Below are positions 11,357 through 33,466 of a DNA stretch of 64,000 nt, piece after piece. The stretch is from the NCBI GenBank assembly GCA_016219925.1, contig JACRJU010000012.1:6723-70722 (forward strand). The letters run 5' to 3'. The notes under the pieces are model-generated. The model was not told the DNA's origin and searched no databases. It saw only the letters and a list, made by a program, of their open reading frames with translations. This DNA is from Candidatus Uhrbacteria bacterium. Its GTDB lineage: Bacteria > Patescibacteriota > Patescibacteriia > UBA9934 > GWF2-40-263. How positions within the stretch are numbered: position 1 is the first letter of the stretch; each line of letters opens with the position of its first letter. The position numbers and the translations under genes are program-made.

Positions 11357-12802
11357 TTAGTAAACTCCCTTTTCTTTGCGGAAGAGGATAACTAAAGGGG
11401 TTTTAAATAAAATGTAGAAATCGAGCCACGGATTCCAATGTTCGATGTAAAAGGTGTCGAGGCGAACTTCGTCTTCAAAATCCAGATCGGCCCGTCCACT
11501 GATTTGGGCCATGCCGGTGATGCCGGGCTTAACGGTATGAACTTTACGATGCTCGGGGCGATATTTTTCGACTTCTTCTGGGAGATGCGGTCGCGGACCC
11601 ACGAGCGACATCCGTCCAGCAAAGACTAAAAAGAATTCAGGCAGTTCATCAATCGAGTAGGTGCGAATAAATCGCCCCACGCGAGTCACGCGCGGGTCGT
11701 TTTTGATTTTGACCATGGGTGTTCCTTTGCGAATGTCTTGGTTTGCGAGTTCTTTATAGCGCATGAAATGGGTGCCGGGAACCATCGAGCGAAATTTGAA
11801 ATAGCGAAAGGCTTTGCCATTTTGACCGATCCGAACGCTCGGCATATTTTTATCAATTTTGGCGAAGAACACCGGTCCGCGCGAATCAAGTTTGATGGCG
11901 ATCGCGGTCAACAGCATGATCGGACTGGTCAGCACGATCAATAGGAGCGAACCGGCAATATCAAACAGACGTTTATAAATAGCCCCCCATCCATCCAATG
12001 GCGTTTTTTGCACTTCGATAACCGGAACGCCCGCATACGTGTGATGAACAGATCGTCCAACCGCGGCGCCGAATAAATCAGCCGTGAACAGAAATCCAAG
12101 ATGTTCACTTTCGGTTAGACTGATAAGAGCCAGACGCGTCTCACCACTTGCTTCGCTATCGGCAAGGATCACCTCGTCGAGTTTATCCTCTCTGGCCATT
12201 TGGGTGAGTCGTTTACTCAACGCTTTATCAAACGAAGCAAAATGGCCGACCACGCGAAATCCGAAGCGTGCTTTTTTTTTGAAGTCTTCGACAAGTGCAT
12301 CCGCGGTTGCATTTTTTCCAATAACGACAAGACGATGGGTGCCGATGCCGAGCCGCAAAAGGGAACGCTGAAGCCCTCGCACCACAAGACGGGCTACGGA
12401 CACGAAGATCACTGAGAGACCCCATGAAGCGAGCGCGATAAAACGCGACTCAAAGAGTTCACGAGAAAAAAACAAAATACCAAACACCAAAGCCATGGAA
12501 GCAGAACACGCCAACACGACACGCGAAAGTTCAGAGGCGATCCGAGTGCGATGGGCGGCGTAAAGGCCCGAGAACGCAAACACCACAATCCAGATCAGAA
12601 CAAGAGGTGTGGCGATTTTTAAATATTGTTCGTAGGTGAGATCGAAAATGACCGGACGAATCGCGGTGAACGCTGGATGGAAGCGAAGAAAGAACGCCGC
12701 CGAGGCCGCCGCAAGCAATGAAAAAAAATCGAGCGGAACGAGCAGGAGCGTGAAGGCAAGTTCGGAGCGTTTCATAAGGTTTGTGGATCCAATAGGACTC
12801 AT
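11357..12802 (-). CDS. polyprenyl-phosphate sugar-1-phosphate transferase (WbaP/exopolysaccharide priming glycosyltransferase family)
   Basis: Multi-TM N-terminus followed by the bacterial sugar transferase domain (FKFRSM...DELPEFFLVFAGRMSLVGPRP). The ORF-track start at 12937 would run into the RNase P RNA gene, so a start at the Met of MSPIGSTNLM (about 12802) is preferred. Confidence 0.75.
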   Translation of the reverse strand: MSPIGSTNLMKRSELAFTLLLVPLDFFSLLAAASAAFFLRFHPAFTAIRPVIFDLTYEQYLKIATPLVLIWIVVFAFSGLYAAHRTRIASELSRVVLACSASMALVFGILFFSRELFESRFIALASWGLSVIFVSVARLVVRGLQRSLLRLGIGTHRLVVIGKNATADALVEDFKKKARFGFRVVGHFASFDKALSKRLTQMAREDKLDEVILADSEASGETRLALISLTESEHLGFLFTADLFGAAVGRSVHHTYAGVPVIEVQKTPLDGWGAIYKRLFDIAGSLLLIVLTSPIMLLTAIAIKLDSRGPVFFAKIDKNMPSVRIGQNGKAFRYFKFRSMVPGTHFMRYKELANQDIRKGTPMVKIKNDPRVTRVGRFIRTYSIDELPEFFLVFAGRMSLVGPRPHLPEEVEKYRPEHRKVHTVKPGITGMAQISGRADLDFEDEVRLDTFYIEHWNPWLDFYILFKTPLVILFRKEKGVY

Positions 12803-12841
12803 GGTATCAAAAAATTCCGCGTGAGCGAAATTTTTTGATGT

Positions 12842-13301
12842 CCTGGGAGAAGTCTGTAAGCCGAATTTTGTCTTCTGTGGGCGCGAGCCCAGAGGAGATG
12901 GCCATCTCTCTAGCCCGATCATTGCTGACCGGATCAAGACCGGCGAAGCCGGTCATAGCGAGCTACCAAACTTGCTCTTTCACCGAAAAGGGTTTGCCAC
13001 GCCATCGTGTCACCACGAGGCGAGATGCGTGGCACACCGGGCAGGGCCCCGTGCACGCCGCATCACTTTTCACCTTTGATCCGGCCGTGAGGCCGGACTC
13101 GTATTGTCTCTGTGGTACTTTCCCTAGGTTTTGAATCCGGGATCAGGGAATATGAATTGCTCCAATTCCGCGAGCCCTGAATCTTATGCCTGGTCGCCGT
13201 TAGCGACTTTTCGTTTCCTGATGCCTTGCGACACCAGGGGTGTTCGGACTTTCCTCTCCATCCTTTTGATGGATGCAGCGGCCATCCGACTTTCCCAGGA
13301 C
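12842..13301 (-). ncRNA. rnpB: RNase P RNA (rnpB), bacterial type
   Basis: Minus-strand read contains P4 5' strand AGGAAAGTCCGAACAC, J11/12 AAAGGTGAAAAGTG and P4 3' strand CACAGAAGACAAAATTCGGCTTACAG (compare E. coli GGAAAGUCCGGGC / AAGGGUGAAA / ACAGAACCCGGCUUA). P1 pairing CCTGGGAAAGTC...GACTTCTCCCAGG; a perfect promoter lies upstream; A/T stem hairpin plus T-run at the 3' end. Confidence 0.75.
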
Positions 13302-13307
13302 GTGGCG

Positions 13308-13336
13308 ATGATAGCAATTTTTTCTTTAGATGTCAA
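13308..13336 (-). promoter_or_regulatory. sigma70-type promoter of rnpB (TTGACA-17 nt-TATCAT, minus strand)
   Basis: Reverse complement reads TTGACATCTAAAGAAAAAATTGCTATCAT, about 7 nt upstream of the P1 5' end. Confidence 0.6.
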
Positions 13337-13347
13337 TAAAAAAACCG

Positions 13348-13971
13348 TCAGGCAGGCCGACGGGCGAGGGCATCGCGCTGGGTGCGCAGATGGACGAAGT
13401 GGAAGTGTGCCATTACAAGCAGACACACCCCTGAAGAGAGGGAGGAGCGCAGGCTGTAGATTCCCGCGAGCGTGTTGCCATGCACGAACGCCGGGATCAT
13501 GCTTACGACTGAGGCCAACAAGGCGATTCCCCAAGCGGAGAACGATTCAGTGTTTCTGCGTTCCCGCACCATGCGTGTAAACAACGGAATGTAGCCGGCG
13601 GTCATGAGCGCCTGGGAGAAGAGGTTGGACTTCCAAGCGTCCGAGAAGACGACACCGTAGAGAACGATCGCTCCAGACGCGATGAGATACTTCTTCTCAA
13701 ACGGCTGAAGAGTGAATCGACGGGGTCCGGTCAGAGCGACAGCCAGAGTGATTGCGAGCGAGACGGCAACGTCGATGGTGTTGAGGATGCCCGAGAGCAG
13801 ATCGAAATGAGCTTCGATCACATAGCTCACAAAACTGATTGTGTCCCCTGTGGCGAACACAACCCACGTCGAGAGCGTTGGCTCGATCGATCGCGCTCGG
13901 ATTTGGCAGATGTAGCGAACGGCCAAGGCGAGCATAAGAGCCGCCGTGACAATGGCACAGACGGTTTTCAT
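13348..13971 (-). CDS. integral membrane protein (6-7 predicted TM; possibly a PnuC-like nucleoside/vitamin transporter, weak)
   Basis: 207 aa, highly hydrophobic, high-GC codon usage; first gene inside the GC-rich island; a weak hairpin plus T7 overlaps the stop codon (CCGTCGGCCTGCCTGACGGTTTTTTT). Confidence 0.5.
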   Translation of the reverse strand: MKTVCAIVTAALMLALAVRYICQIRARSIEPTLSTWVVFATGDTISFVSYVIEAHFDLLSGILNTIDVAVSLAITLAVALTGPRRFTLQPFEKKYLIASGAIVLYGVVFSDAWKSNLFSQALMTAGYIPLFTRMVRERRNTESFSAWGIALLASVVSMIPAFVHGNTLAGIYSLRSSLSSGVCLLVMAHFHFVHLRTQRDALARRPA

Positions 13972-13986
13972 GCAAACCTCCTTCGT

Positions 13987-14082
13987 TCAGGGCATGAGGA
14001 TTTTGACCAATCCGGGGATGGTCGGCAGGTAGGCCAGGACGATCGTAATGATAGCCCACGTACGCATCTCGGCGTTGCTCAT
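13987..14082 (-). CDS. 31-aa hydrophobic micro-ORF (MSNAEMRTWAIITIVLAYLPTIPGLVKILMP)
   Basis: ATG...TGA, 15 nt upstream of the membrane-protein gene whose RBS (GGAGG) follows it; single predicted TM; hand-translated and not in the ORF track. Confidence 0.3.
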   Translation of the reverse strand: MSNAEMRTWAIITIVLAYLPTIPGLVKILMP

Positions 14083-14169
14083 AATAGCTTTCTTTTCTGC
14101 GAGTGAATGTGCAAGACGACGAATGAATAGCTTACGCTTTGTTGGGTGTCTGTCAAGGAAAATTTTGTG

Positions 14170-14199
14170 AAAATAAAAAGGCCGAGTCTGTGGCTCGGC
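14170..14199 (-). terminator. rho-independent terminator after deoB
   Basis: Minus strand GCCGAGccacagaCTCGGC followed by CTTTTTATTTT; the hairpin overlaps the TAG stop. Confidence 0.5.
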
Positions 14200-15428
14200 T
14201 AGGCGGCGATGTGGACGATGGCGTCGCGTTGAGTGTCTGCGCAGTTAAAGTGCTGCGCGACGAGCAGACCCACCTCCGTGAGCCCTTCGCCCGTTCCCGT
14301 CTGGAGGGGAAACTGACGGTTCCCCACAGTGCAAGCCAATAGTGGCACCGGCTCGCGGTTGTGGTAGCCGTAGTCGTCGCGGTGCTCCATGCCGTGATCG
14401 GCTGTGATCAGGAGCAGATCGTCCGTGGCGAGCTCCGCCTCAATCATCGGCAGGACGCGGTCGAACTCTTCGAGACAACGCAGAGCGCCCTCGATGTCGC
14501 GCGTGTGGCCGTAGAGACTGTCGGTGTCGACGCAGTTGGCGAAGATGAAGGTTCCCCGCGCAGATGTGGTGCGCGTGTGGCGGACGGCGCGCACGATGCC
14601 GTCGATTGTGAAGGGGTTGGTGTCCTTCTGCTTGGGATGCACGAAGCGCAGGTCGAGCTTCGGATCCAGCAGGCTCGGATCCGCGAGATGATACTCGAGA
14701 TCGTAGTCGGTGTTGACCAGATCGCTGGGCTTACCGACAGAGATCACATGGATGCCGGCGTGGCGCAGGACGTCCACGAGAGTGGGTCCCGGCAGGGCGA
14801 GCACGGCGTCGTGGCGGTTGGCCGTGCGGATGTATTCGCCTTCAGGCGTCTGCACGAAGGCGCGGGCGATCGCCCGTGTGATCGGGATCCCCATCTCGAT
14901 GGCGACCTGCAGGGCGAGATCCGCGATTCGGTGTTGCTCGTTGATCTGGATCACAGCTTCGTCCATCGCGAACTGGATGAGGGGATCACACTTGCTTGCG
15001 TAGACGATTGGCCGTCCGGTGCGAGCGTGCTCCGCGGCGTTGGTTTCGATTACCTCGACCCCACCGCCCATTTGGTTGAACAGAGTCTCGCGCCCGGTGC
15101 GACGCTCGAGCTCCGCGATGTAGCGAGTGTCGAATCCGTTGGGGAAGAGCTTGTAGGTCCGACCATCCACGATGCCGCACATCTCGCGATGTCCGATGAC
15201 GGAATCGGGGGAGGCCGAGGCTTGGTCGAGGCGTACGGCGTGTGCACCGGGTTGCGGGTCGGGGCCAAGAACGAGGCGCGAATGGACGTTCGGATTCAGC
15301 AGAGTGCGCAGGCCCAGCCGGGTCAGGTTGGGGAGAGCGGTTGGCTTCTTGGAGCGATCGAGCAAGTACTCAAGGGTCGTGACCCCCAAAGCATCCAGGA
15401 CGATGAGTACGGCGATGCGCGCGGACAT
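14199..15428 (-). CDS. deoB: phosphopentomutase
   Basis: 409 aa; alkaline-phosphatase-superfamily motifs including LITADHGM; full-length similarity to DeoB as recalled; GAAAAGGAG RBS; about 65% GC. Confidence 0.85.
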   Translation of the reverse strand: MSARIAVLIVLDALGVTTLEYLLDRSKKPTALPNLTRLGLRTLLNPNVHSRLVLGPDPQPGAHAVRLDQASASPDSVIGHREMCGIVDGRTYKLFPNGFDTRYIAELERRTGRETLFNQMGGGVEVIETNAAEHARTGRPIVYASKCDPLIQFAMDEAVIQINEQHRIADLALQVAIEMGIPITRAIARAFVQTPEGEYIRTANRHDAVLALPGPTLVDVLRHAGIHVISVGKPSDLVNTDYDLEYHLADPSLLDPKLDLRFVHPKQKDTNPFTIDGIVRAVRHTRTTSARGTFIFANCVDTDSLYGHTRDIEGALRCLEEFDRVLPMIEAELATDDLLLITADHGMEHRDDYGYHNREPVPLLACTVGNRQFPLQTGTGEGLTEVGLLVAQHFNCADTQRDAIVHIAA

Positions 15429-15480
15429 GGGACTCCTTTTCTAAGAGCAGAGAACTCTTAGTGACACGGAGCTTACGGGA

Positions 15481-15516
15481 AAAGAAAAATCCCGTCCACT
15501 CTTGCGAGCAGACGGG
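15481..15516 (-). terminator. rho-independent terminator after the aldehyde dehydrogenase gene
   Basis: Minus strand CCCGTCtgctcgcaagagtgGACGGG followed by ATTTTTCTTTT. Confidence 0.45.
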
Positions 15517-15533
15517 TTGGAAGAAGAGGAGCA

Positions 15534-17909
15534 TCAGGCACCGAAGGGCACCCAGATGGCCTTGGGGTGGGTCGCCTCCGCCAGGGCCCGGGCGGAGAGG
15601 ATCGATGGGTCCAGCCAGTTGAGTCGACGGCCGTCTGACACCCACGTGCGCTTGAGGTTGCCGATTGAGACTTCCTCGATGCGCCGACTGGTGTCGGGAT
15701 CGTATCCGAAGTACCAGAACGATCCGACCTCATCGTAATTGCCTGCGAGCATGACCGCGGCCTCGTCGGGCGCTTCGGGCGTGAGGATGTTGACCACGCC
15801 GCCGGGCAGGTCCGAACTCTGCGCGATCGGCACAAGGTCGAGCGCACTGATGGGCCTGGTGCCCGCGAGCATCACGACCGTGTTGCCCTGGGCGATGGCC
15901 TGTGCCATGGGAGCGACCATTCCGAGCAGAGGAAGCTCGTCGGTCGCCCGCACGCCGATCACCCCGATCGGTTCGCTCAAGGTCGTGACCAGCATCGGGC
16001 CGCACACTCGGCTGACCGTGCCGGCGTTGCGATCCGCATAGGCTGCGTTCCAGAACAGCGCCTCGACCGAGGCGTCGAACTCCTGGCGCGCCTGCTCGAA
16101 CGAGATGCCCGTCTGGGCGCGCAGGCGCTCGATGATGTCGAGCCGCTGGTCGGTGAGGTTCTCCGCGAAGAACCGCAGGATCTGCGCCCGGTTGTGGCCG
16201 GTCTTGCCGCGCCAGCCCAGGAAGGCCTTGGCGGCCGCCTCGACCGCACTGCGCAGATCCTTGCGGTTGACGTGTCCCACGTTGCCGAGGAACACCCCGC
16301 CGGGGCCGTTGATGCGGTAGCTGCGGTCTCCGTCGGGGCGCTTGAGCGCGCCGCCGATGAGGTTCCGTCGGGTGCGGTGAAGCGTGAGCCCCACCACGGG
16401 CTCGGGCACACGATCCTCCGGCTCGGGCACACGCGGTTCCACCGGGGGCTGGTCGACCTCTGTGAGGTACGCGAGCATGCCCCGGTCTCCGCCTTCGGAA
16501 CCCCAGCCACTCTCGCGACGGCCTCCGAACTCGACGGCGGCATCGAACTGGTTGGTGCAGTTGATCCACACCGTGCCAGCTTCGATCCGGGAGGCGATGT
16601 CGAAGGCCACGTCCATGGTCTGCGACCACACGCTGGCGGCCAGGCCGTAGCGCGTGTTGTTGGCCAGCTCCACAGCCTCACCGACCTCGCGGAACGTCAT
16701 GATGACGAGCACGGGGCCGAAGATCTCCTCGCGCGCGATCGTGTGCGCGGGCGAGACGTTGGTGAACAGAGTCGGGGGGATGAACAGGCCGCACTGGCAG
16801 GACTCGAGCAGGCACGAATCGGGCTGCCACTTGGTGGCCCCTTCCTGCTCGCCCAGAGCGATCAGGCCCGTGACCTTGTCGAACTGCGCGCGCGAGTTCA
16901 TCGCGCCGATGTCCACGGTTTTGTCGAGCGGATGACCCACTCGCAGACGCGACATCCGCCGCTTGAGCTTCGCGAGGAAGCGTTCGACGACGCTCTCCTG
17001 GACGATCGCGCGCGATCCGGCGCAACACACCTCCCCCTTGTTGAAGAAGATGGCGTCGATGATGCCCTCGACTGCAGCGTCCAGATCGGCATCCTCGCAC
17101 ACGATGAAGGGCGACTTGCCGCCGGCCTCCAGCGTGAGAGCTTTGCCCGATCCGGCCGTGGCCGTTCGGATCTTGCAGGCAACCGCGGTTGAGCCGGTGA
17201 AGGCCACTTTGGCGATGCCCGGGTGGCGCACGAGTGCGTCTCCGGTCGAGCCATCACCGTTGACGATGTTGACGACGCCCTTTGGCAAGCCGATCTCCAT
17301 CAGGATCTCGGCGAACCGCATGGCGGTCAGCGGCGTGGAGTCCGCCGTCTTGATGACGACGGTGTTGCCGGTCGCGAGCGCGACCGCGACCTTCCAGGCG
17401 AGCATCAGGAACGGGAAGTTCCAGGGGATCACCTGGCCGACGACTCCGCGCGGCTTGTGGTTGGGATGGTCCACGCCGAGGGTCTGGGCCCTTCCGGCGT
17501 GGTGTTCGAAGTGTCGGACGACCAGCGGGACGTCCGCGTCGCGGGCTTCCCGGATGGCCTTGCCGTTGTCGAGAGTCTCGAGCACGGCGAAGAGCCGGGC
17601 GTTCTCACGGATCGCGCGGGCGATCGCGTAGAGGTGCAGGGCGCGCTCGAATCCCGAGAGTTGGCTCCAGGTCTTGAACGCCTCGCTGGCGCTCGCGACC
17701 GCGGCGTCGACATCCGCCTGGGTTCCCCGGGGGATGCTCGCCAGCCGTTCGCCCGTGGCCGGGTTGATGACCTCGATCCGATCGGTTGTCCCGGACGGGG
17801 TCTGGAACACTCCGTTGATGAAGTGATCGAAGGTGTCGTTGTGCGAAGCGAGCCAGTGCAGAGCAGACCCTGCGTCCTCGTGATCGCTCGTATAGACAGC
17901 CGTGGTCAT
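15534..17909 (-). CDS. aldehyde dehydrogenase family protein with a second, degenerate ALDH-like C-terminal domain (791 aa)
   Basis: The N-terminal ~480 aa carry canonical ALDH motifs (VIPWNFPFLM, KTADSTPLTA, EAGGKSP, GEVCCAGSR, EEIFGPV). Residues ~500-791 again resemble an ALDH NAD-binding/catalytic region but lack the catalytic Cys context. The start overlaps the deoC stop by 11 nt. Confidence 0.7.
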   Translation of the reverse strand: MTTAVYTSDHEDAGSALHWLASHNDTFDHFINGVFQTPSGTTDRIEVINPATGERLASIPRGTQADVDAAVASASEAFKTWSQLSGFERALHLYAIARAIRENARLFAVLETLDNGKAIREARDADVPLVVRHFEHHAGRAQTLGVDHPNHKPRGVVGQVIPWNFPFLMLAWKVAVALATGNTVVIKTADSTPLTAMRFAEILMEIGLPKGVVNIVNGDGSTGDALVRHPGIAKVAFTGSTAVACKIRTATAGSGKALTLEAGGKSPFIVCEDADLDAAVEGIIDAIFFNKGEVCCAGSRAIVQESVVERFLAKLKRRMSRLRVGHPLDKTVDIGAMNSRAQFDKVTGLIALGEQEGATKWQPDSCLLESCQCGLFIPPTLFTNVSPAHTIAREEIFGPVLVIMTFREVGEAVELANNTRYGLAASVWSQTMDVAFDIASRIEAGTVWINCTNQFDAAVEFGGRRESGWGSEGGDRGMLAYLTEVDQPPVEPRVPEPEDRVPEPVVGLTLHRTRRNLIGGALKRPDGDRSYRINGPGGVFLGNVGHVNRKDLRSAVEAAAKAFLGWRGKTGHNRAQILRFFAENLTDQRLDIIERLRAQTGISFEQARQEFDASVEALFWNAAYADRNAGTVSRVCGPMLVTTLSEPIGVIGVRATDELPLLGMVAPMAQAIAQGNTVVMLAGTRPISALDLVPIAQSSDLPGGVVNILTPEAPDEAAVMLAGNYDEVGSFWYFGYDPDTSRRIEEVSIGNLKRTWVSDGRRLNWLDPSILSARALAEATHPKAIWVPFGA

Positions 17910-17918
17910 GGAATCCTC

Positions 17919-18884
17919 CTAGGCGATCGCCAGGTAGTGGCCGGCCGGGTAGCGCCCGAACGCGGCGTGGTGCAGTTGGCGCTCCAGGTCTCCCAGAAGT
18001 GAGCTGGCTCCGATCCGGAACCGCTCCGGCTTCGTCCAGTCCTCTCCGAGCTGTTCGTGCATGAGCGCCATCCAGGCCTGGGCCTCCTTGGCCGTCTTGA
18101 TGCCGCCGGCGGGCTTGAAGCCCACGGGGTGGCTCGGATCGATCTCGAGGAAGCGCAAGATCTGGTCGGTCATGACCAGACCGATCGGCAAGGTAGCGTT
18201 GGTTGCTTCCTTCCCAGTCGAGGTCTTGATGACATCGGCTCCGGCCAGGATGGCCGTGGCCGAGGCTTTCGCGATCCGTTCGAGCCTGACCAGGTTGCCC
18301 GTTCCCAGGATCACCTTGAGCTTGGCGCGATCGCCACAGGCCCTGCGGAAGCCGGCGATCTGGTCGTAGAGCGCCTTCCAGTTGCTCTGAAGCGCGAGGG
18401 CGCGGCTGATGACCACGTCGATCTCGGCCGCACCGGCGTTGATCGAAGCCTCGATCTCTTGAGGCTTGAGTTCCTCAGGGCCTTGCCCGTCGGGGAAGAA
18501 CGTCGAGACCGCCGCGACCGGGACCCCGGTTTTTTCCAGACAGGCCACGGCCTCGGCGACCTGCGCGTGGTACACGCACACGGCGCCGACGGTGAACGGC
18601 TCGATCCCGAGTTTCTCGAGGATGTCCGGTCGGACCGGACGCTTGGCCTTCTGGCAAAGCCGATCGACTCGTCCGGGAGTGTCACTCCCATCCAGAGTGG
18701 TCAGGTCGATGCACTGGATGGCATCGACGTGGGCGCGCACTTGCGAACCCCTCTTGATTGGCCGGCGCGCGACGAGCGATTGCGCTCGCTGTTCGACGCC
18801 TCTTCGGTTGACGTGGATCGACTCGATCAGGCCCAAGTCGAAGGCCAAAGTCTCACGCATGACTCCTCCGTAGGAAATTCCCAA
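17919..18884 (-). CDS. deoC: deoxyribose-phosphate aldolase (long form)
   Basis: 321 aa; class I aldolase TIM-barrel motifs (AAVSTFFPDGQG, Schiff-base Lys region VIKTSTGK); GGAGG RBS; high GC. Confidence 0.8.
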   Translation of the reverse strand: MGISYGGVMRETLAFDLGLIESIHVNRRGVEQRAQSLVARRPIKRGSQVRAHVDAIQCIDLTTLDGSDTPGRVDRLCQKAKRPVRPDILEKLGIEPFTVGAVCVYHAQVAEAVACLEKTGVPVAAVSTFFPDGQGPEELKPQEIEASINAGAAEIDVVISRALALQSNWKALYDQIAGFRRACGDRAKLKVILGTGNLVRLERIAKASATAILAGADVIKTSTGKEATNATLPIGLVMTDQILRFLEIDPSHPVGFKPAGGIKTAKEAQAWMALMHEQLGEDWTKPERFRIGASSLLGDLERQLHHAAFGRYPAGHYLAIA

Positions 18885-18908
18885 TCCATGGGGGATAGGG
18901 ATGGACTT

Positions 18909-24164: not shown

Positions 24165-24338
24165 ACGTCTCATGGATAACGCACCGATTCTAACAAACAA
24201 GACGTTTTCCGTCAACGGGAAAGCTTGCGTTTCATGCCTTTTCCAGACATCCGCATTTTTGGACGCCCCTTCTTTTCTCGTCGTTTAATTCGTCGTTCTT
24301 CTTTATGTTCGGCGATTTCAATCTTCATATTTTTTTCT

Positions 24339-24434
24339 GTCATCCCGAGCGAAGCACTTGTCATCCTGAGCGAAGCGAAGGATCCCGTGCACCTTGGGAT
24401 CCTTCAGTCCATACAAACTCCTTCAGGATGACAT
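24339..24434. repeat. about 95-bp nested-palindromic repeat element (family core TGTCATCCTGAGCG[A/C]AGCGAAGGATC)
   Basis: Outer inverted repeat TGTCATCCTGA...TCAGGATGACA and inner perfect 10-bp inverted repeat GAAGGATCCC-gtgcacctt-GGGATCCTTC, plus an extra direct half-copy (GTCATCCCGAGCGAAGCAC). Same family as 37345-37419 and 37954-38027. The ORF-track ORF 24225..24431 (…VILSEAKDP…) is simply its translation. Confidence 0.55.
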
Positions 24435-24483
24435 AGAGAGAAACACACTAGAGGTTCGCTTTTTCCCATGATATACTTTTCTT

Positions 24484-25224
24484 ATGCCTTCGCCTATTGT
24501 TCCACTTTCTGATGCGCATCTCCACAAACAACGCAACTGGTTTGCGACGATCATCACGTTGGCTGTTATTCTTCTTCTTGGAGCTTTTGTCTGGCGAGTG
24601 CTAACGCTTGCTCAGCAAATCCGTTCCGGAGCTGTTGATCCTTCAACGTTTGATTTCAAGCAGTCTTTTACTTCAAGCTTGCGCCTTTCCGCGATCCCGC
24701 TGACGACGGGAAATGTGAACCTGGTTACAACAGACGATCCGTCTTTAGGCAGAGCAGATGCTCCGCTGACCGTTGTAGAGTTTGCCGATTTCGGCTGCCC
24801 GTTTTCCCGCGAGGCCGGTTTTACTCTGCGCGAACTCTCGCTTCGCTACCCGGAGAAGTTTCGGTATATCTATCGCGATTTTCCCATCGGCGAATTGCAC
24901 CCGATTGCGCAAAAAGCGGCAGAAGCGGCTGAGTGCGCTTCCGAACAAGGACGGTTCTGGGAATATCATGACAAACTGTTTCACAATCAATCAGATCTTT
25001 CTCAAGAGCGTCTGTATGAATTTGCGACAGAGTTGAATCTGAATACGCAGACGTTTCGGGAATGTTTAGATTCGGGACGCAAACGCGAGGAAGTTCTTCA
25101 GGATTATCAGGATGGGATAGACGCGGGGGTGCGCGGGACTCCGACGTTTTTCTTTAACGGGAAAAAAGTCGAAGGGGCTATCCCGAAAAAAACGTTTGAG
25201 GCATTGATTAACGCGGTGCCATAA
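24484..25224 (+). CDS. DsbA-family thioredoxin-fold thiol:disulfide oxidoreductase with a CPFS (CxxS) active-site motif, membrane-anchored
   Basis: 246 aa; N-terminal TM anchor; thioredoxin-fold motif VEFADFGCPFSRE; DsbA-like helical insertion with a second Cys (AAECASEQGRFWEY); a cis-Pro region near the C-terminus (VRGTPTFFFNG). Confidence 0.75.
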   Translation: MPSPIVPLSDAHLHKQRNWFATIITLAVILLLGAFVWRVLTLAQQIRSGAVDPSTFDFKQSFTSSLRLSAIPLTTGNVNLVTTDDPSLGRADAPLTVVEFADFGCPFSREAGFTLRELSLRYPEKFRYIYRDFPIGELHPIAQKAAEAAECASEQGRFWEYHDKLFHNQSDLSQERLYEFATELNLNTQTFRECLDSGRKREEVLQDYQDGIDAGVRGTPTFFFNGKKVEGAIPKKTFEALINAVP

Positions 25225-25230
25225 GAGTCT

Positions 25231-26514
25231 ATGAATTTTTTCGTGCGTATCGGTGCGGTCGGAGTTTTGCTCAGTCTTTTTTTTGCTCCAAGAGTTTTGT
25301 TAGCTGCGGGCGCCGCGGACACCTGTGCGTGTTTTTGCGCGAATGAAAAGTTAGGAGCACAGAAATTGAAAGATGAGGCCGTGACACCAGATCAATGTGA
25401 GACCGGGTGTACAGAAACAGGAAGAAAGGTTGCTGTTTGCGCCAAGAAGCCAAAGAATTTTCCCGGAAATAATCCCCTGTGCTTTGATTCAGCAGCTTGC
25501 GGTAAACAGGAAGGAGTTTTAGATAAAACACAAGCTCCAGAGTGTCCAAACGGATGGTCTTATTGTTATCCGAACATTGAAAAGTCTGCTGCCAAACTGA
25601 ATATCCCTATTGCGGGTTTGGAAACGGTTGGGGATTTGGGAGTGTATGTGTCGGCCATTTACAAATGGATGGTTGGGATTTCGGGATTTTTAGCTATTAC
25701 CATGGTTATGATCGGCGGGATTCAGTATGTGCTTGCCTCGGGGAGTGAGAACGTCACCAAAGCAAAAGAGCGCATGCAGAATGGGGTGATTGGAATGGCG
25801 CTCCTTTTTGGTGTCGTTCTTATTTTACAGACCATTAACCCCCAGCTTCTTAAATTGGAGATCCCTCGACCTTCTTTGATTCGGCGAGTGGATTTTGTCA
25901 AAAATTCGTGTGAGAAATTGGCTGAGCAGGGATATACTCTTGAGCTCACGAAAGATGGAAAAAAGGAATGTGGAAATACTGCGGAAATCAAAAAAGGTCC
26001 AGGGGGGACAACTGTGGCTGAAGGGCTTACGTGTCAATATACCAAGTGTGAAAAAGGGGCCTGTATATCAACCAGCACTGATGGCGAAGGAGTTTGTGTT
26101 GATTGCCGAAATGTTTCAAAAAATAATCCGACAAGTCCTGGCATTCCGTCCAAATCGGTGTGTAAAGGAATGGAGATACAAAAAACCAATGCAAAAGGTG
26201 AACTGCTTTCCGCAAATTATTGTGAATTCCAACCCGGCGGTGTGCTCAATATATATAACCCCAAGCAGACGACAACCGCTGTGGCACTTTCTGCGGATTC
26301 ATGTTTCGAGACAGTGGTCGACTGTAGCACTATCAAGGAATGCGAAAATTACGATAATGCTCCGGTTTATTATTGGGATGGCGGTGTCCTTAAAAAACAG
26401 GATTTAGATAGCATTTTACCCATTACTTTTCAACAGATTTGTATTAATGATCCGTGTGAGGCTGGAAAAAAGGAAGGATCAAAATGCACGTGGTCGATAA
26501 CGGACTGTGATTAG
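25231..26514 (+). CDS. secreted/membrane cysteine-rich protein (26 Cys) with a central VirB2/TrbC-pilin-like two-helix hairpin
   Basis: 427 aa; signal peptide; ectodomain 1 with 10 Cys; TM hairpin (VYVSAIYKWMVGISGFLAITMVMIGGIQYV - short KAKERM loop - IGMALLFGVVLILQTI) resembling TrbC/VirB2-type pilins; ectodomain 2 with 16 Cys; starts 6 nt after the dsbA-like stop. Confidence 0.5.
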   Translation: MNFFVRIGAVGVLLSLFFAPRVLLAAGAADTCACFCANEKLGAQKLKDEAVTPDQCETGCTETGRKVAVCAKKPKNFPGNNPLCFDSAACGKQEGVLDKTQAPECPNGWSYCYPNIEKSAAKLNIPIAGLETVGDLGVYVSAIYKWMVGISGFLAITMVMIGGIQYVLASGSENVTKAKERMQNGVIGMALLFGVVLILQTINPQLLKLEIPRPSLIRRVDFVKNSCEKLAEQGYTLELTKDGKKECGNTAEIKKGPGGTTVAEGLTCQYTKCEKGACISTSTDGEGVCVDCRNVSKNNPTSPGIPSKSVCKGMEIQKTNAKGELLSANYCEFQPGGVLNIYNPKQTTTAVALSADSCFETVVDCSTIKECENYDNAPVYYWDGGVLKKQDLDSILPITFQQICINDPCEAGKKEGSKCTWSITDCD

Positions 26515-26523
26515 GATTTGTTA

Positions 26524-26552
26524 TTGACGCGTGTTTGTGTGCGTGATAGACT
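26524..26552 (+). promoter_or_regulatory. candidate sigma70 promoter for uvrA (TTGACG-17-TAGACT)
   Basis: TTGACGCGTGTTTGTGTGCGTGATAGACT about 28 nt upstream of the uvrA ATG. Confidence 0.4.
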
Positions 26553-29526: not shown

Positions 29527-31239
29527 ATGATCAATTTGAAAAAAACCTTAATTGCCGCTCTCTTGGCCGCAACGGCTGTGAGCCCGATCATTCCCTCGGT
29601 AAACGCTGGCGACGGTCAGTGGAATTCTGTCATCGCCGAGGCCGCTTGGGACTATGATTTGTACCGCGTTGAACGCCTTTCCACGGGGAAGAACGTGAGC
29701 GGCCCGTTTGAGTTTAATGACGGAATATTTTTGAGCGAACAGGCCAAGAGCTGTAAATATCCCGATGCGTGTCAGTTGGTTGATTTGACGTTCGTCAAAA
29801 ACGGATCGCTGATGCGCGTGAACGATGTGAATCCTCGCGTCTTGTCTCCTTTTTGGCACAGCGGCCAAGATGGGCGGTTTGTTTATCTGGTGCCTTCTTC
29901 CAGCAAAGACAGCTGGGGAACCGTGTTTGGATACTTACCAGAAAGTGGAGTGATTCAGACATTGAGTTCGATTGTGCGCAAGACTGACGACATCAACTAT
30001 TTAACTTCATCCGTGGATGGCACGCGTGTGTACGCGTCCATCCTTCATAAGGACGCTCAAACCGGTGCGGTTGAAACCAAGCTTTCCGTTGCCGATTACG
30101 CCGAGCGTTTTGAGCGCGATGATTTTACGTGGACGTTGAATGCGCGTTGGCAAGAGATTTTGGATGTTCGCGATCGCCTTGTGCTCGCGAAGTTTCATTT
30201 TGACGGAGGGCACTCACAGCTCATCTTGATCGATGAAGCTCATCGGACGGTTAAGGATATTCCCGGAACTTGGACGACTCCAGACGGAGATATCGTTGCC
30301 GCGCATTTCCTTTCTGACGGCACGGTCCAGTACTTTCAAAACTTCCGCATGTACACTTATAAACCCGGAGATGAAAAAGCTACCGAATCCGGTGGAGCGT
30401 ATCTCAACTGGTTCGCTGATCCCAAAGACAGCATCCAGATTGTCGGAGATCGCATGGCCTATCTTGATCCGGAGAACACGTTATATGTGACGTCTCCTCA
30501 AGGAGCTTCAAGCTTCGGCAAGGTGCTCAATGGCAAGTTTACTCTTGAGGCCGATGCGGTTTACTTCCAGTCTCCAAAAGAATTTAACAGCTATACGTTC
30601 AGCACCAAAACTTGGAAGGCCCGTCATTTTCAAGTGACGGATGCCTATGAAGACATTCTCATTGGAACAGACGCGCAAGGGAATATCTGGTATGAAAATG
30701 AGACCAGCGGAAAGACCGTAAACATTGGTTACGGTTCCGCGCCGGTTTTGACCGATCGCGAGCATGCGATTTGGAAGGGGGCCGATGGCCACATCTATCA
30801 AGTCACGTTTTCCTCGCTTCTTGATCTGGGCAAGTCCCAGGTCCAAGCTTTCAAAGCTTACGGCGAGTCAACGGTTTACTTGCAGGTTGATCAGAAAACA
30901 TGGCGTGTTCCGGATGAGCAGACGTACTTCACCTGGTTTTCCTCATGGGCCAAAGTGACTTCAGTGTCGACTCAAACGGCAAAAGTTTATCTGGATAAGG
31001 CTCCGTTGATGGGAGACGCCCCGTTTGCTCCGGGGACCCGTGTGAAAGCCGCTGGCAATGCCCGCGTGTATGTCTCTGGAACAAATGGGTCACTTCATTG
31101 GATGGTCTCCGAGACGGTTGCGAATCAAATCTACGGTTCGTCTTGGAATAAAGGTATTATTGAAGTTCGCCCTGAACGTTTGTGGAATTATCCCACGGGA
31201 TCTCGTCTGAATTCAAGCACGGATATTCAACAGATTTAA
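29527..31239 (+). CDS. secreted hypothetical protein (signal peptide; beta-rich, possibly beta-propeller-like)
   Basis: 570 aa; N-terminal signal peptide MINLKKTLIAALLAATAVSPIIPSVNA; no recognisable catalytic motifs. Confidence 0.55.
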   Translation: MINLKKTLIAALLAATAVSPIIPSVNAGDGQWNSVIAEAAWDYDLYRVERLSTGKNVSGPFEFNDGIFLSEQAKSCKYPDACQLVDLTFVKNGSLMRVNDVNPRVLSPFWHSGQDGRFVYLVPSSSKDSWGTVFGYLPESGVIQTLSSIVRKTDDINYLTSSVDGTRVYASILHKDAQTGAVETKLSVADYAERFERDDFTWTLNARWQEILDVRDRLVLAKFHFDGGHSQLILIDEAHRTVKDIPGTWTTPDGDIVAAHFLSDGTVQYFQNFRMYTYKPGDEKATESGGAYLNWFADPKDSIQIVGDRMAYLDPENTLYVTSPQGASSFGKVLNGKFTLEADAVYFQSPKEFNSYTFSTKTWKARHFQVTDAYEDILIGTDAQGNIWYENETSGKTVNIGYGSAPVLTDREHAIWKGADGHIYQVTFSSLLDLGKSQVQAFKAYGESTVYLQVDQKTWRVPDEQTYFTWFSSWAKVTSVSTQTAKVYLDKAPLMGDAPFAPGTRVKAAGNARVYVSGTNGSLHWMVSETVANQIYGSSWNKGIIEVRPERLWNYPTGSRLNSSTDIQQI

Positions 31240-33389: not shown

Positions 33390-33466
33390 TGGTAGGGGCG
33401 GATGGATTCGAACCATCGGCCATCGAGGTATAAGCTCGACGCTCTAACCAACTGAGCTACGCCCCT
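33390..33466 (-). tRNA. tRNA-Ile with anticodon UAU (AUA-decoding type), CCA encoded
   Basis: Minus-strand read AGGGGCGTAGCTCAGTTGGTTAGAGCG-TCGAG-CTTATAC-CTCGA-TGGCC-GATGGTTCGAATCCATC-CGCCCCTACCA; perfect 5-bp anticodon stem; loop CTTATAC gives U33 and anticodon TAT. Confidence 0.7.

Follow-up and report, generated by a model that had tools for sequence, protein, structure and literature searches.

We examined two adjacent genes in a 64,000-nucleotide (nt) stretch of a Candidatus Uhrbacteria genome (contig JACRJU010000012.1; the whole stretch is hereafter the window, and all positions refer to it). The first encodes a DsbA-like protein of the thioredoxin fold, and the second a 427-amino-acid (aa) protein with 26 cysteines and a pilin-type helical hairpin. 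The explanation we favor, at a probability of roughly 0.5, is that the two genes form a conserved surface-protein module, in which the hairpin would anchor and display the 427-aa protein while a DsbA-family enzyme with a single active-site thiol would act as its dedicated isomerase or holdase. Candidatus Uhrbacteria belong to the Patescibacteria, or candidate phyla radiation (CPR), and are ultra-small and probably host-dependent. An earlier reading made from the DNA letters, without database searches (the sequence-only reading), had proposed a novel 'decorated' pilin or membrane-anchored adhesin that depends on a neighboring thiol oxidoreductase for its folding.

A DsbA-like gene directly precedes a 26-cysteine protein with a pilin-type hairpin

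The pair and its parts are laid out as follows.

24484..25224, + strand: DsbA-like open reading frame (ORF), 246 aa; 'thioredoxin domain-containing protein' of Candidatus Uhrbacteria at NCBI
24538..24606, + strand: N-terminal transmembrane anchor of the DsbA-like protein (aa 19-41), its only hydrophobic stretch
24796..24807, + strand: active-site motif C105-P-F-S108 (monothiol CxxS), as read from the sequence
25225..25230, + strand: spacer between the two genes, 6 nt, GAGTCT
25231..26514, + strand: 427-aa, 26-cysteine protein with a T4SS_pilin hairpin; hypothetical protein HZA85_02295 at NCBI
25231..25314, + strand: signal peptide, about aa 1-28; hydrophobic N-terminus with an Ala-rich cleavage region, AAGAA, just before C32
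25315..25632, + strand: N-terminal ectodomain, 10 cysteines (C32, 34, 36, 56, 60, 70, 84, 90, 105, 112)
25633..25851, + strand: pilin-type helical hairpin, from the PF18895 match and AlphaFold2 (AF2) helices
25852..26511, + strand: C-terminal ectodomain, 16 cysteines (residues 227-426)

Both proteins are 100% identical to NCBI entries of Candidatus Uhrbacteria (the match of the DsbA-like protein is P0163 in our set). The upstream gene stops with TAA at 25222-25224 and the downstream ORF begins with ATG at 25231, so the 6-nt separation noted in the sequence-only reading agrees with the coordinates (25224/25231). The AAGAG motif that it took for a ribosome-binding site is present, but it is a weak, oddly spaced Shine-Dalgarno match that overlaps the stop codon of the DsbA-like gene and ends only 3 nt before the ATG. 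No terminator-like site was found between the two genes, and a promoter-like site lies at 26524-26552, ahead of uvrA.

The overall plan of the 427-aa protein, a signal peptide, ten cysteines, a pair of hydrophobic helices with a short basic loop between them and then sixteen cysteines, was described correctly from the sequence, and the peptide quoted in that description is present in the protein. There are exactly 26 cysteines, ten at residues 32-112 and sixteen at 227-426, and hydropathy picks out residues 1-30 (the signal peptide), 143-171 and 181-207. Roughly 105 and 220 residues lie outside the hairpin on its two sides, and both cysteine-rich domains are predicted to be outside the membrane. 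The AF2 model shows a helix at 2-18 followed by a low-confidence linker at 19-28, and homologues carry AQA/VQA-type cleavage sites at the same place as AAGAA. Cysteine makes up 6.1% of the protein compared with 0.97% of the window's other 52 long ORFs (binomial P = 2.8e-13), and the other probable exported proteins nearby (the SBP_bac_5, DUF11 and DUF4012 proteins) have none. The cysteines form no CxxCH motif, only one CxxC and no His/Cys clusters.

AF2 modeled the protein with a mean predicted local distance difference test (pLDDT) score of 75.7. Both ectodomains came out as compact mixed alpha/beta folds (pLDDT about 83-91 over aa 31-110 in the N-terminal one and mostly 80-91 in the C-terminal one), with the hairpin scoring lower than either. 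For neither ectodomain was a resemblance found in Pfam, PDB or BFVD; the full-length family profile gave 0 matches to PDB sequences, and the protein had no matches in PHROGs.

All 26 cysteines are conserved in a large family

A word-indexed search returned 18 homologues of the 427-aa protein, and an exhaustive profile search returned at least 330 clusters (50% identity) at E<=1e-30, with nearly all of the top 150 full-length. The sequence-only reading had singled out cysteine conservation among homologues as a point to check. Across 162 family sequences 26 is the modal number of cysteines, and any one of these positions is a cysteine in 142-162 of them (N-terminal ectodomain, 142-161; C-terminal ectodomain, 157-162). 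C32 and C70 are replaced together in 13/162 sequences; since they are lost as a pair, a disulfide between them is indicated. Column entropy is lowest in the hairpin, the most conserved part (1.5-1.7 bits), and highest at the non-cysteine positions of the ectodomains (2.7-3.0 bits). Judged by this alignment, the ectodomains are a fixed cysteine scaffold under a fast-changing surface.

The idea that such a decorated pilin is unusual in this phylum did not survive the search. At least 330 clusters share the architecture, and decoration appears common in Patescibacteria because many of the other PF18895 proteins in the phylum are long (250-900 aa) and cysteine-rich. Among sampled loci of other PF18895 proteins, about two thirds of the proteins exceed 250 aa, in a sample biased by the search pattern.

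The hairpin is a PF18895 pilin module with a weak tie to classical VirB2

The helices of the AF2 hairpin span aa 136-168 and 172-202, with the loop S-G-S-E-N-V-T-K-A-K-E-R between the hydrophobic segments and a conserved N203-P204 at the outer end of helix 2. The Pfam family PF18895 (T4SS_pilin, named for the type IV secretion system, T4SS) matches aa 141-200 at 32.7 bits, above its curated cut-off of 26.6; when the hairpin was scanned alone the score rose to 38.1 bits, and 37/37 related hairpins also matched. One family member is already named 'pilin' at NCBI, and the only NCBIfam match, to the Mbov_0395 pilin-like family, fell below threshold.

The classical family PF04956 (TrbC/VirB2) did not match the 427-aa protein at E<=1; weak, sub-threshold matches to it occur in 16/37 related hairpins, the best at 1.1e-4. 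Aligning the hairpin alignment with five annotated VirB2 proteins (plasmids, Agrobacterium-type) using hhalign placed helix 1 in register at a probability of 3.9% (P = 0.011), which is not significant. A hairpin-only profile searched against PDB found only chance membrane-helix matches, and structure searches found only generic helical hairpins, with no solved pilin among the sequence or fold matches. Structure cannot decide kinship with VirB2 because a two-helix hairpin is too simple. On profile evidence, then, the hairpin is a recognized pilin-type module at the level of PF18895; the likeness to VirB2/TrbC pilins claimed in the sequence-only reading stands in that form, but a direct tie to the classical proteins is weak. 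A profile envelope also suggested that the C-terminal domain is common to a T4SS-linked pilin of another locus (L023), a candidate we dropped since pairwise BLAST supports the hairpin only.

The DsbA-like enzyme carries a conserved monothiol active site

The DsbA-like protein matches PF13462 (Thioredoxin_4) at 90.2 bits and PF01323 (DSBA) at 70 bits, as expected of a thioredoxin fold into which a helical domain is inserted. Kyte-Doolittle windows exceed 1.6 at aa 17-46 only, and by analogy with MdbA and BdbD the catalytic domain would lie outside the cytoplasm. Its closest sequence relatives in PDB are 7uno/7unn, the Corynebacterium diphtheriae DsbA 4pwo and the Bacillus subtilis BdbD 3eu3, with 3bci also found. 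The best match, 7uno_A, a 'thioredoxin domain-containing protein', likewise reads CPFS at the aligned active site and has a near-identical sequence in 7unn; 7uno may be an engineered C-to-S variant.

The CPFS site, overlooked in the sequence-only reading, is typical of the family. Among the 120 closest homologues, 117 have CxxS (82 CPYS, 28 CPFS), and the examined family neighbors of the pilin-like gene read CP(Y/F)S or CSYS. The nucleophilic cysteine, T219-P220 and a second cysteine pair, C151/C194, are invariant in 120/120; from its position, T219-P220 is presumably in the cis conformation. The combination of CxxS with the invariant cysteine, Thr-Pro and C151/C194 indicates a selected, functional monothiol site. 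In a quick neighbor-joining tree CxxC is found in the outgroups, CxxS is basal in the Uhrbacteria clade and one small CxxC sub-clade sits inside it, a placement that suggests an old C-to-S change followed by one reversion. The reverted CPFC enzyme (P0268) is paired with an ordinary 28-cysteine family member (P0047), and the resolving cysteine is therefore dispensable for this client. The same pair ruled out a correspondence of CxxC enzymes with hyper-cysteine pilins and of CxxS enzymes with 26-cysteine proteins, which a CPYC enzyme beside a 54-cysteine pilin (L014) had suggested. Across the same contigs the enzyme is 63-75% identical and its pilin-like partner 40-55%.

Because serine replaces the resolving cysteine, the enzyme cannot hand over a disulfide in the manner of DsbA. 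It is not a classical DsbA, and its motif suggests that it shuffles or holds disulfides and is not a donor. We scanned for re-oxidizing partners and for T4SS genes among the window ORFs, including every ORF of >=550 aa, and in relatives across 6-10 kb around the module; no DsbB, VKOR or BdbC was found among the scanned window ORFs or the relatives' neighboring genes. CxxS proteins of the thioredoxin fold catalyze isomerization and act as holdases, with no oxidation or reduction, and the CxxS protein disulfide isomerase (PDI) AGR2 forms mixed disulfides with the cysteine-rich mucin MUC2 (PMC12384036). A thioredoxin-fold Dsb protein is thus present and conserved beside the pilin-like gene, as the sequence-only reading had it, but the 'dedicated oxidase' would be better described as a 'dedicated isomerase or mixed-disulfide chaperone' given CPFS here and CxxS in 117/120.

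A CPR-enriched MdbA-like family has already been described and proposed to fold type IV pilins (Meheust et al. 2019, PMC6744442); in this family, fam000318, CxxC is present in 89% and VKOR is sometimes adjacent. That paper does not mention the CxxS clade or a VirB2-like partner, a search for literature joining CPR, DsbA and disulfide bond found none, and as far as we could find the CxxS clade within the bacterial DsbA/MdbA family is undescribed.

Instead of forming disulfides, the cysteines could be ligands of metals or cofactors, or an anoxic habitat could leave them reduced, with the thioredoxin-fold neighbor keeping them reduced or loading the metal. Uhrbacteria are mostly groundwater anaerobes without quinones, which is in keeping with such a role, as are the lack of a DsbB or VKOR gene among the scanned window ORFs and a monothiol site that cannot oxidize by the DsbA route. 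Yet the cysteine number is even, C32 and C70 disappear together, metal-type motifs are nearly lacking (no CxxCH, one CxxC, no His/Cys clusters), AF2 confidently models the ectodomains as compact mixed alpha/beta folds, and the enzyme keeps an extra cysteine pair typical of extracytoplasmic DsbA-like proteins. We consider this explanation very improbable.

The two genes stay together across relatives

The sequence-only reading had also pointed to the dsbA neighbor as something to look for beside homologues. A DsbA-like gene lies directly upstream in every locus examined that has a full-length family member, where the two genes overlap by as much as 38 nt or stand up to about 160 nt apart. The setting is a housekeeping locus, with the pair between secG and uvrA, and relatives share the block trpS-rnj-SBP5-secG, the pair, and then uvrA, a gene for a 570-aa protein and rplS.

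The adjacency might accordingly reflect conserved synteny only, with the DsbA-like protein a general extracytoplasmic thiol-disulfide catalyst beside secG. The whole trpS-to-rplS block is syntenic across relatives, and MdbA-like oxidoreductases are a general, CPR-enriched family (PMC6744442). Against this, in several genomes the stop of the first gene and the start of the second are coupled or overlap, and at one locus (L007) the pair is kept although the downstream gene differs. Pairing also recurs in another neighborhood: a DsbA-like gene (CEHC) lies directly upstream of two pilin-hairpin paralogues with 14 cysteines each at L016:7962-11488, flanked by clpB-like and PD40-repeat genes upstream and radA and recG downstream, and another precedes two paralogues with 10-11 cysteines at L017:186-3219. 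These two loci are a second, independent genomic context for the pairing. Because of this context, the persistence of the pair at L007 and the lack of cysteines in the other exported proteins of the window, the pairing probably goes beyond inherited order, and we think it quite unlikely that synteny is the whole explanation.

The interval from secG to the DsbA-like gene holds a small ORF (24212-24364, - strand) for a very basic protein without a Pfam match. Its C-terminus, RREKK..P.MRM(S/T)GKGMKRKL(S/A)R, is conserved in the window and in L001, L002 and L003, and partly in L043, and it looks like an unannotated conserved small protein. The region from this ORF and secG to the DsbA-like gene (24339-24433, + strand) has two tandem copies of GTCATCCYGAGCGAAGC at 24339 and 24360, where chance would give 0.03. 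After them comes a long imperfect palindrome with a stable fold (z = -3.0; -49 kcal/mol for 24300-24483). This could be a repeat element, or else a regulatory hairpin of the divergent promoter region. The 570-aa protein of the shared block (29527-31239, + strand) has a signal-peptide-like N-terminus, 2 cysteines and no Pfam or PHROG match, and relatives keep it at this place, after uvrA, in the block.

No type IV secretion genes were found near the module

A search for VirB4, VirB6 and VirD4 had been suggested together with the pilin proposal. None of these, nor virB3, was found among the scanned ORFs of the 64 kb window, and no T4SS genes were found within 6-10 kb of the module in relatives. 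The pilin-like gene is single-copy here and lies in neither a T4SS cluster nor a pilin array. The portion of Table S1 of PMC12102498 that was available to us records VirB4 in 18/36 Uhrbacteria genomes and its absence in 18/36. Four genomes in that portion have the module, two scored 'Yes' for VirB4 and two scored 'No' (RIFCSPHIGHO2_12_FULL_47_12 and RIFOXYB12_FULL_58_10, whose DsbA-like proteins belong to the same family).

PF18895 is the family that Wang et al. 2023 and Quinonero-Coronel et al. 2025 described in Patescibacteria as the 'VirB2-like pilin'. Its genes form arrays beside virB4 and are essential in one species (PMC12102498, PMC10633639, PMC12857230), while filament assembly is so far unproven for any PF18895 member and no such pilus has been seen in any monoderm (PMC12857230).

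In a contig labeled uncultured Candidatus Saccharibacteria (L036:1021-11140; CAZMKW010000002.1), a VirB4-type ATPase, recognized by P-loop_TraG and a weak TraC_F_IV match, comes first. Next are a 1176-aa protein that has 65 cysteines and three tandem PF18895 proteins (494, 449 and 385 aa). This cluster lies about 2 kb from dnaA.

The 427-aa protein may instead be a genuine T4SS pilin with decorations. A machine of the VirB4/VirB6 type, with its genes elsewhere, would extract the hairpin from the membrane, the subunits would polymerize into a filament coated by the two disulfide-rich domains, and the DsbA-like protein would prepare the subunits. PF18895 membership points this way, as do the hairpin, with its basic loop and N203-P204, being the most conserved region and the weak PF04956 matches in 16/37 related hairpins. 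In L023, and in L036 next to dnaA, long, cysteine-rich PF18895 proteins have VirB4-type ATPases as neighbors, and two module-bearing genomes are scored VirB4-positive in the available part of the table. Counting against it, we know of no precedent in solved VirB2/TraA pili for about 340 residues of folded ectodomain per subunit. No T4SS gene was seen in the 64 kb scanned here or near the module in relatives, and VirB4 goes undetected in half of the Uhrbacteria in that part of the table, two of which carry the module. The essential VirB2-like arrays of Patescibacteria speak for a pilin (PMC12102498, PMC10633639, PMC12857230) and the fact that no such pilus has been seen in any monoderm speaks against one (PMC12857230). 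We regard a true pilin as a real possibility, though an unlikely one.

A proposed role for the pair

The arrangement we favor, a hairpin-anchored surface protein with its own monothiol enzyme, could work as follows. The 427-aa protein would be exported by Sec and its signal peptide removed. It would then be held in the membrane by the VirB2-like (PF18895) hairpin with the short basic loop towards the cytoplasm, and both of its ends would therefore lie outside. The 10 and 16 cysteines would hold a domain at each end through disulfides, most likely 13 in all, one of them C32-C70. The membrane-anchored DsbA/MdbA-family protein keeps the nucleophilic cysteine and the presumed cis-proline and has serine in place of the resolving cysteine; its C105 would attack immature or wrong disulfides of the nascent ectodomains and, through transient mixed disulfides, shuffle or hold them until the native pattern is reached. 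Net oxidation would be supplied by a source other than the DsbA-like protein. The mature protein would stand on the cell surface, where a fixed cysteine scaffold with variable residues between would fit the recognition of a partner or host and might serve adhesion. In most Uhrbacteria we judge it to be a surface protein that the hairpin anchors and that may form oligomers, and not an obligatory filament built by a T4SS.

The nearby exported proteins of the window are without cysteines, so there are few other clients at the locus, which favors a dedicated enzyme. Several points weigh on the other side. Elsewhere in the genome there could be further clients of the DsbA-like protein, and oxidation by a monothiol site is conceivable by way of a sulfenic acid or a partner thiol. 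The secG-to-L19 (rplS) neighborhood is wholly syntenic in these relatives; adjacency is therefore weaker evidence and could be inherited order. The hairpin is the best-conserved part of the protein, as expected if it polymerizes or docks to a machine, and decorated cysteine-rich PF18895 proteins adjoin VirB4-type ATPases in other Patescibacteria (L036, L023). Finally, the absence of VirB4 from draft genomes may reflect incompleteness or divergence.

A bolder form of this explanation is that a VirB2-type pilin has become a core surface structure independent of any T4SS, stapled by 13 disulfides, which recognizes or holds partner cells and is matured by a dedicated, naturally monothiol DsbA-family isomerase or holdase. 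We put this forward tentatively and think it rather unlikely in full.

Other features of the window

At about 13300-18900 the GC content is 62-67%, compared with 47-52% on either side, and this GC-rich island carries genes for a DeoC-type aldolase, a 791-aa aldehyde dehydrogenase and a Metalloenzyme-superfamily protein. Related Uhrbacteria contigs pass from the Bac_transf gene to trpS without these genes, so the island is probably an insertion gained by horizontal transfer. A class A RNase P RNA (12840-13297, - strand; 149.6 bits) overlaps the 5' end of the Bac_transf ORF (11357-12937), and the real start of that ORF must therefore be further downstream than mechanically listed. A tRNA-Ile with anticodon TAT (33390-33466, - strand) is an uncommon bacterial way to read AUA. 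The window also holds a glycan-synthesis cluster of about 29 kb (34095-63325), with glycosyltransferases, at least 6 methyltransferases, a DAHP-synthase-family (KDO-like) enzyme, a cytidylyltransferase, an ABC exporter and a Wzy_C ligase, and at 3.4-12.9 kb a second GT4 gene set with DUF4012/DUF11 surface proteins.

Relation to known systems and significance

PF18895-type pilin-like proteins and MdbA-like oxidoreductases have both been described in Patescibacteria already, and the pair is a variant of both. The 427-aa protein resembles the PF18895 VirB2-like pilins of the phylum in hairpin score, signal peptide and two-helix topology, and long cysteine-rich members near VirB4-type ATPases exist among those pilins too. 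It differs from them in being single-copy in a housekeeping locus, in having a cysteine-rich domain on both sides of the hairpin, in being preceded by a DsbA-like gene at every full-length family locus examined, and in occurring in genomes scored VirB4-negative in the available part of the table cited above. With the classical VirB2/TrbC/TraA pilins (PF04956 and relatives) it shares the signal peptide, two hydrophobic helices, a short basic loop and termini predicted outside, but those measure about 70-120 aa in mature form and lack ectodomains, compared with 427 aa and two ectodomains here.

The DsbA-like protein has the same fold and N-terminal anchor as MdbA (Actinomyces, Corynebacterium), BdbD (Bacillus) and the CPR family fam000318. 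MdbA folds pilins, and the proposed clients are sortase pilins for MdbA and type IV pilins for the CPR family, whereas the partner here is a VirB2-like protein. Those enzymes have CxxC and are re-oxidized by VKOR or BdbC; here CxxS is found in 117/120 and no VKOR or DsbB was found nearby.

A single nucleophilic cysteine in a thioredoxin fold also occurs in ERp44 (CRFS), AGR2/AGR3, yeast Eug1p and CGHS mutants of PDI. The natural ones, ERp44, AGR2/AGR3 and Eug1p, are eukaryotic proteins of the endoplasmic reticulum and belong to another thioredoxin subfamily, so the likeness would be one of mechanism only. The F plasmid offers a functional parallel, in that TrbB and TraF assist the cysteine-rich clients TraN, TraU and TraH. 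ERp44, AGR2/AGR3, Eug1p and the PDI mutants work by way of mixed disulfides when they isomerize or hold a client; AGR2 has a dedicated client, a secreted protein very rich in cysteine (PMC12384036). TrbB, a disulfide isomerase and chaperone, and TraF are thioredoxin-fold helpers of cysteine-rich envelope proteins of the T4SS family (PMC11315126). They are DsbC-like, periplasmic and found in diderms, and their clients are not pilins; any likeness to the present pair would be functional, and we make no claim of homology.

Only a few gene sets have been shown to be essential to Patescibacteria in their host-dependent life, and the VirB2-like pilins are one of them. The present family is a well-defined case that can be expressed in the laboratory, with two compact, putatively disulfide-scaffolded ectodomains on a pilin hairpin, conserved across Candidatus Uhrbacteria. 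As the module is apparently present even without detected VirB4, it becomes testable whether such hairpins work outside a T4SS. The CxxS enzyme bears on how cysteine-rich surface proteins are folded in organisms without quinones and respiratory chains. If true, the T4SS-independent reading would provide a bacterial counterpart of AGR2 and ERp44 and a hint at oxidative folding without quinones.

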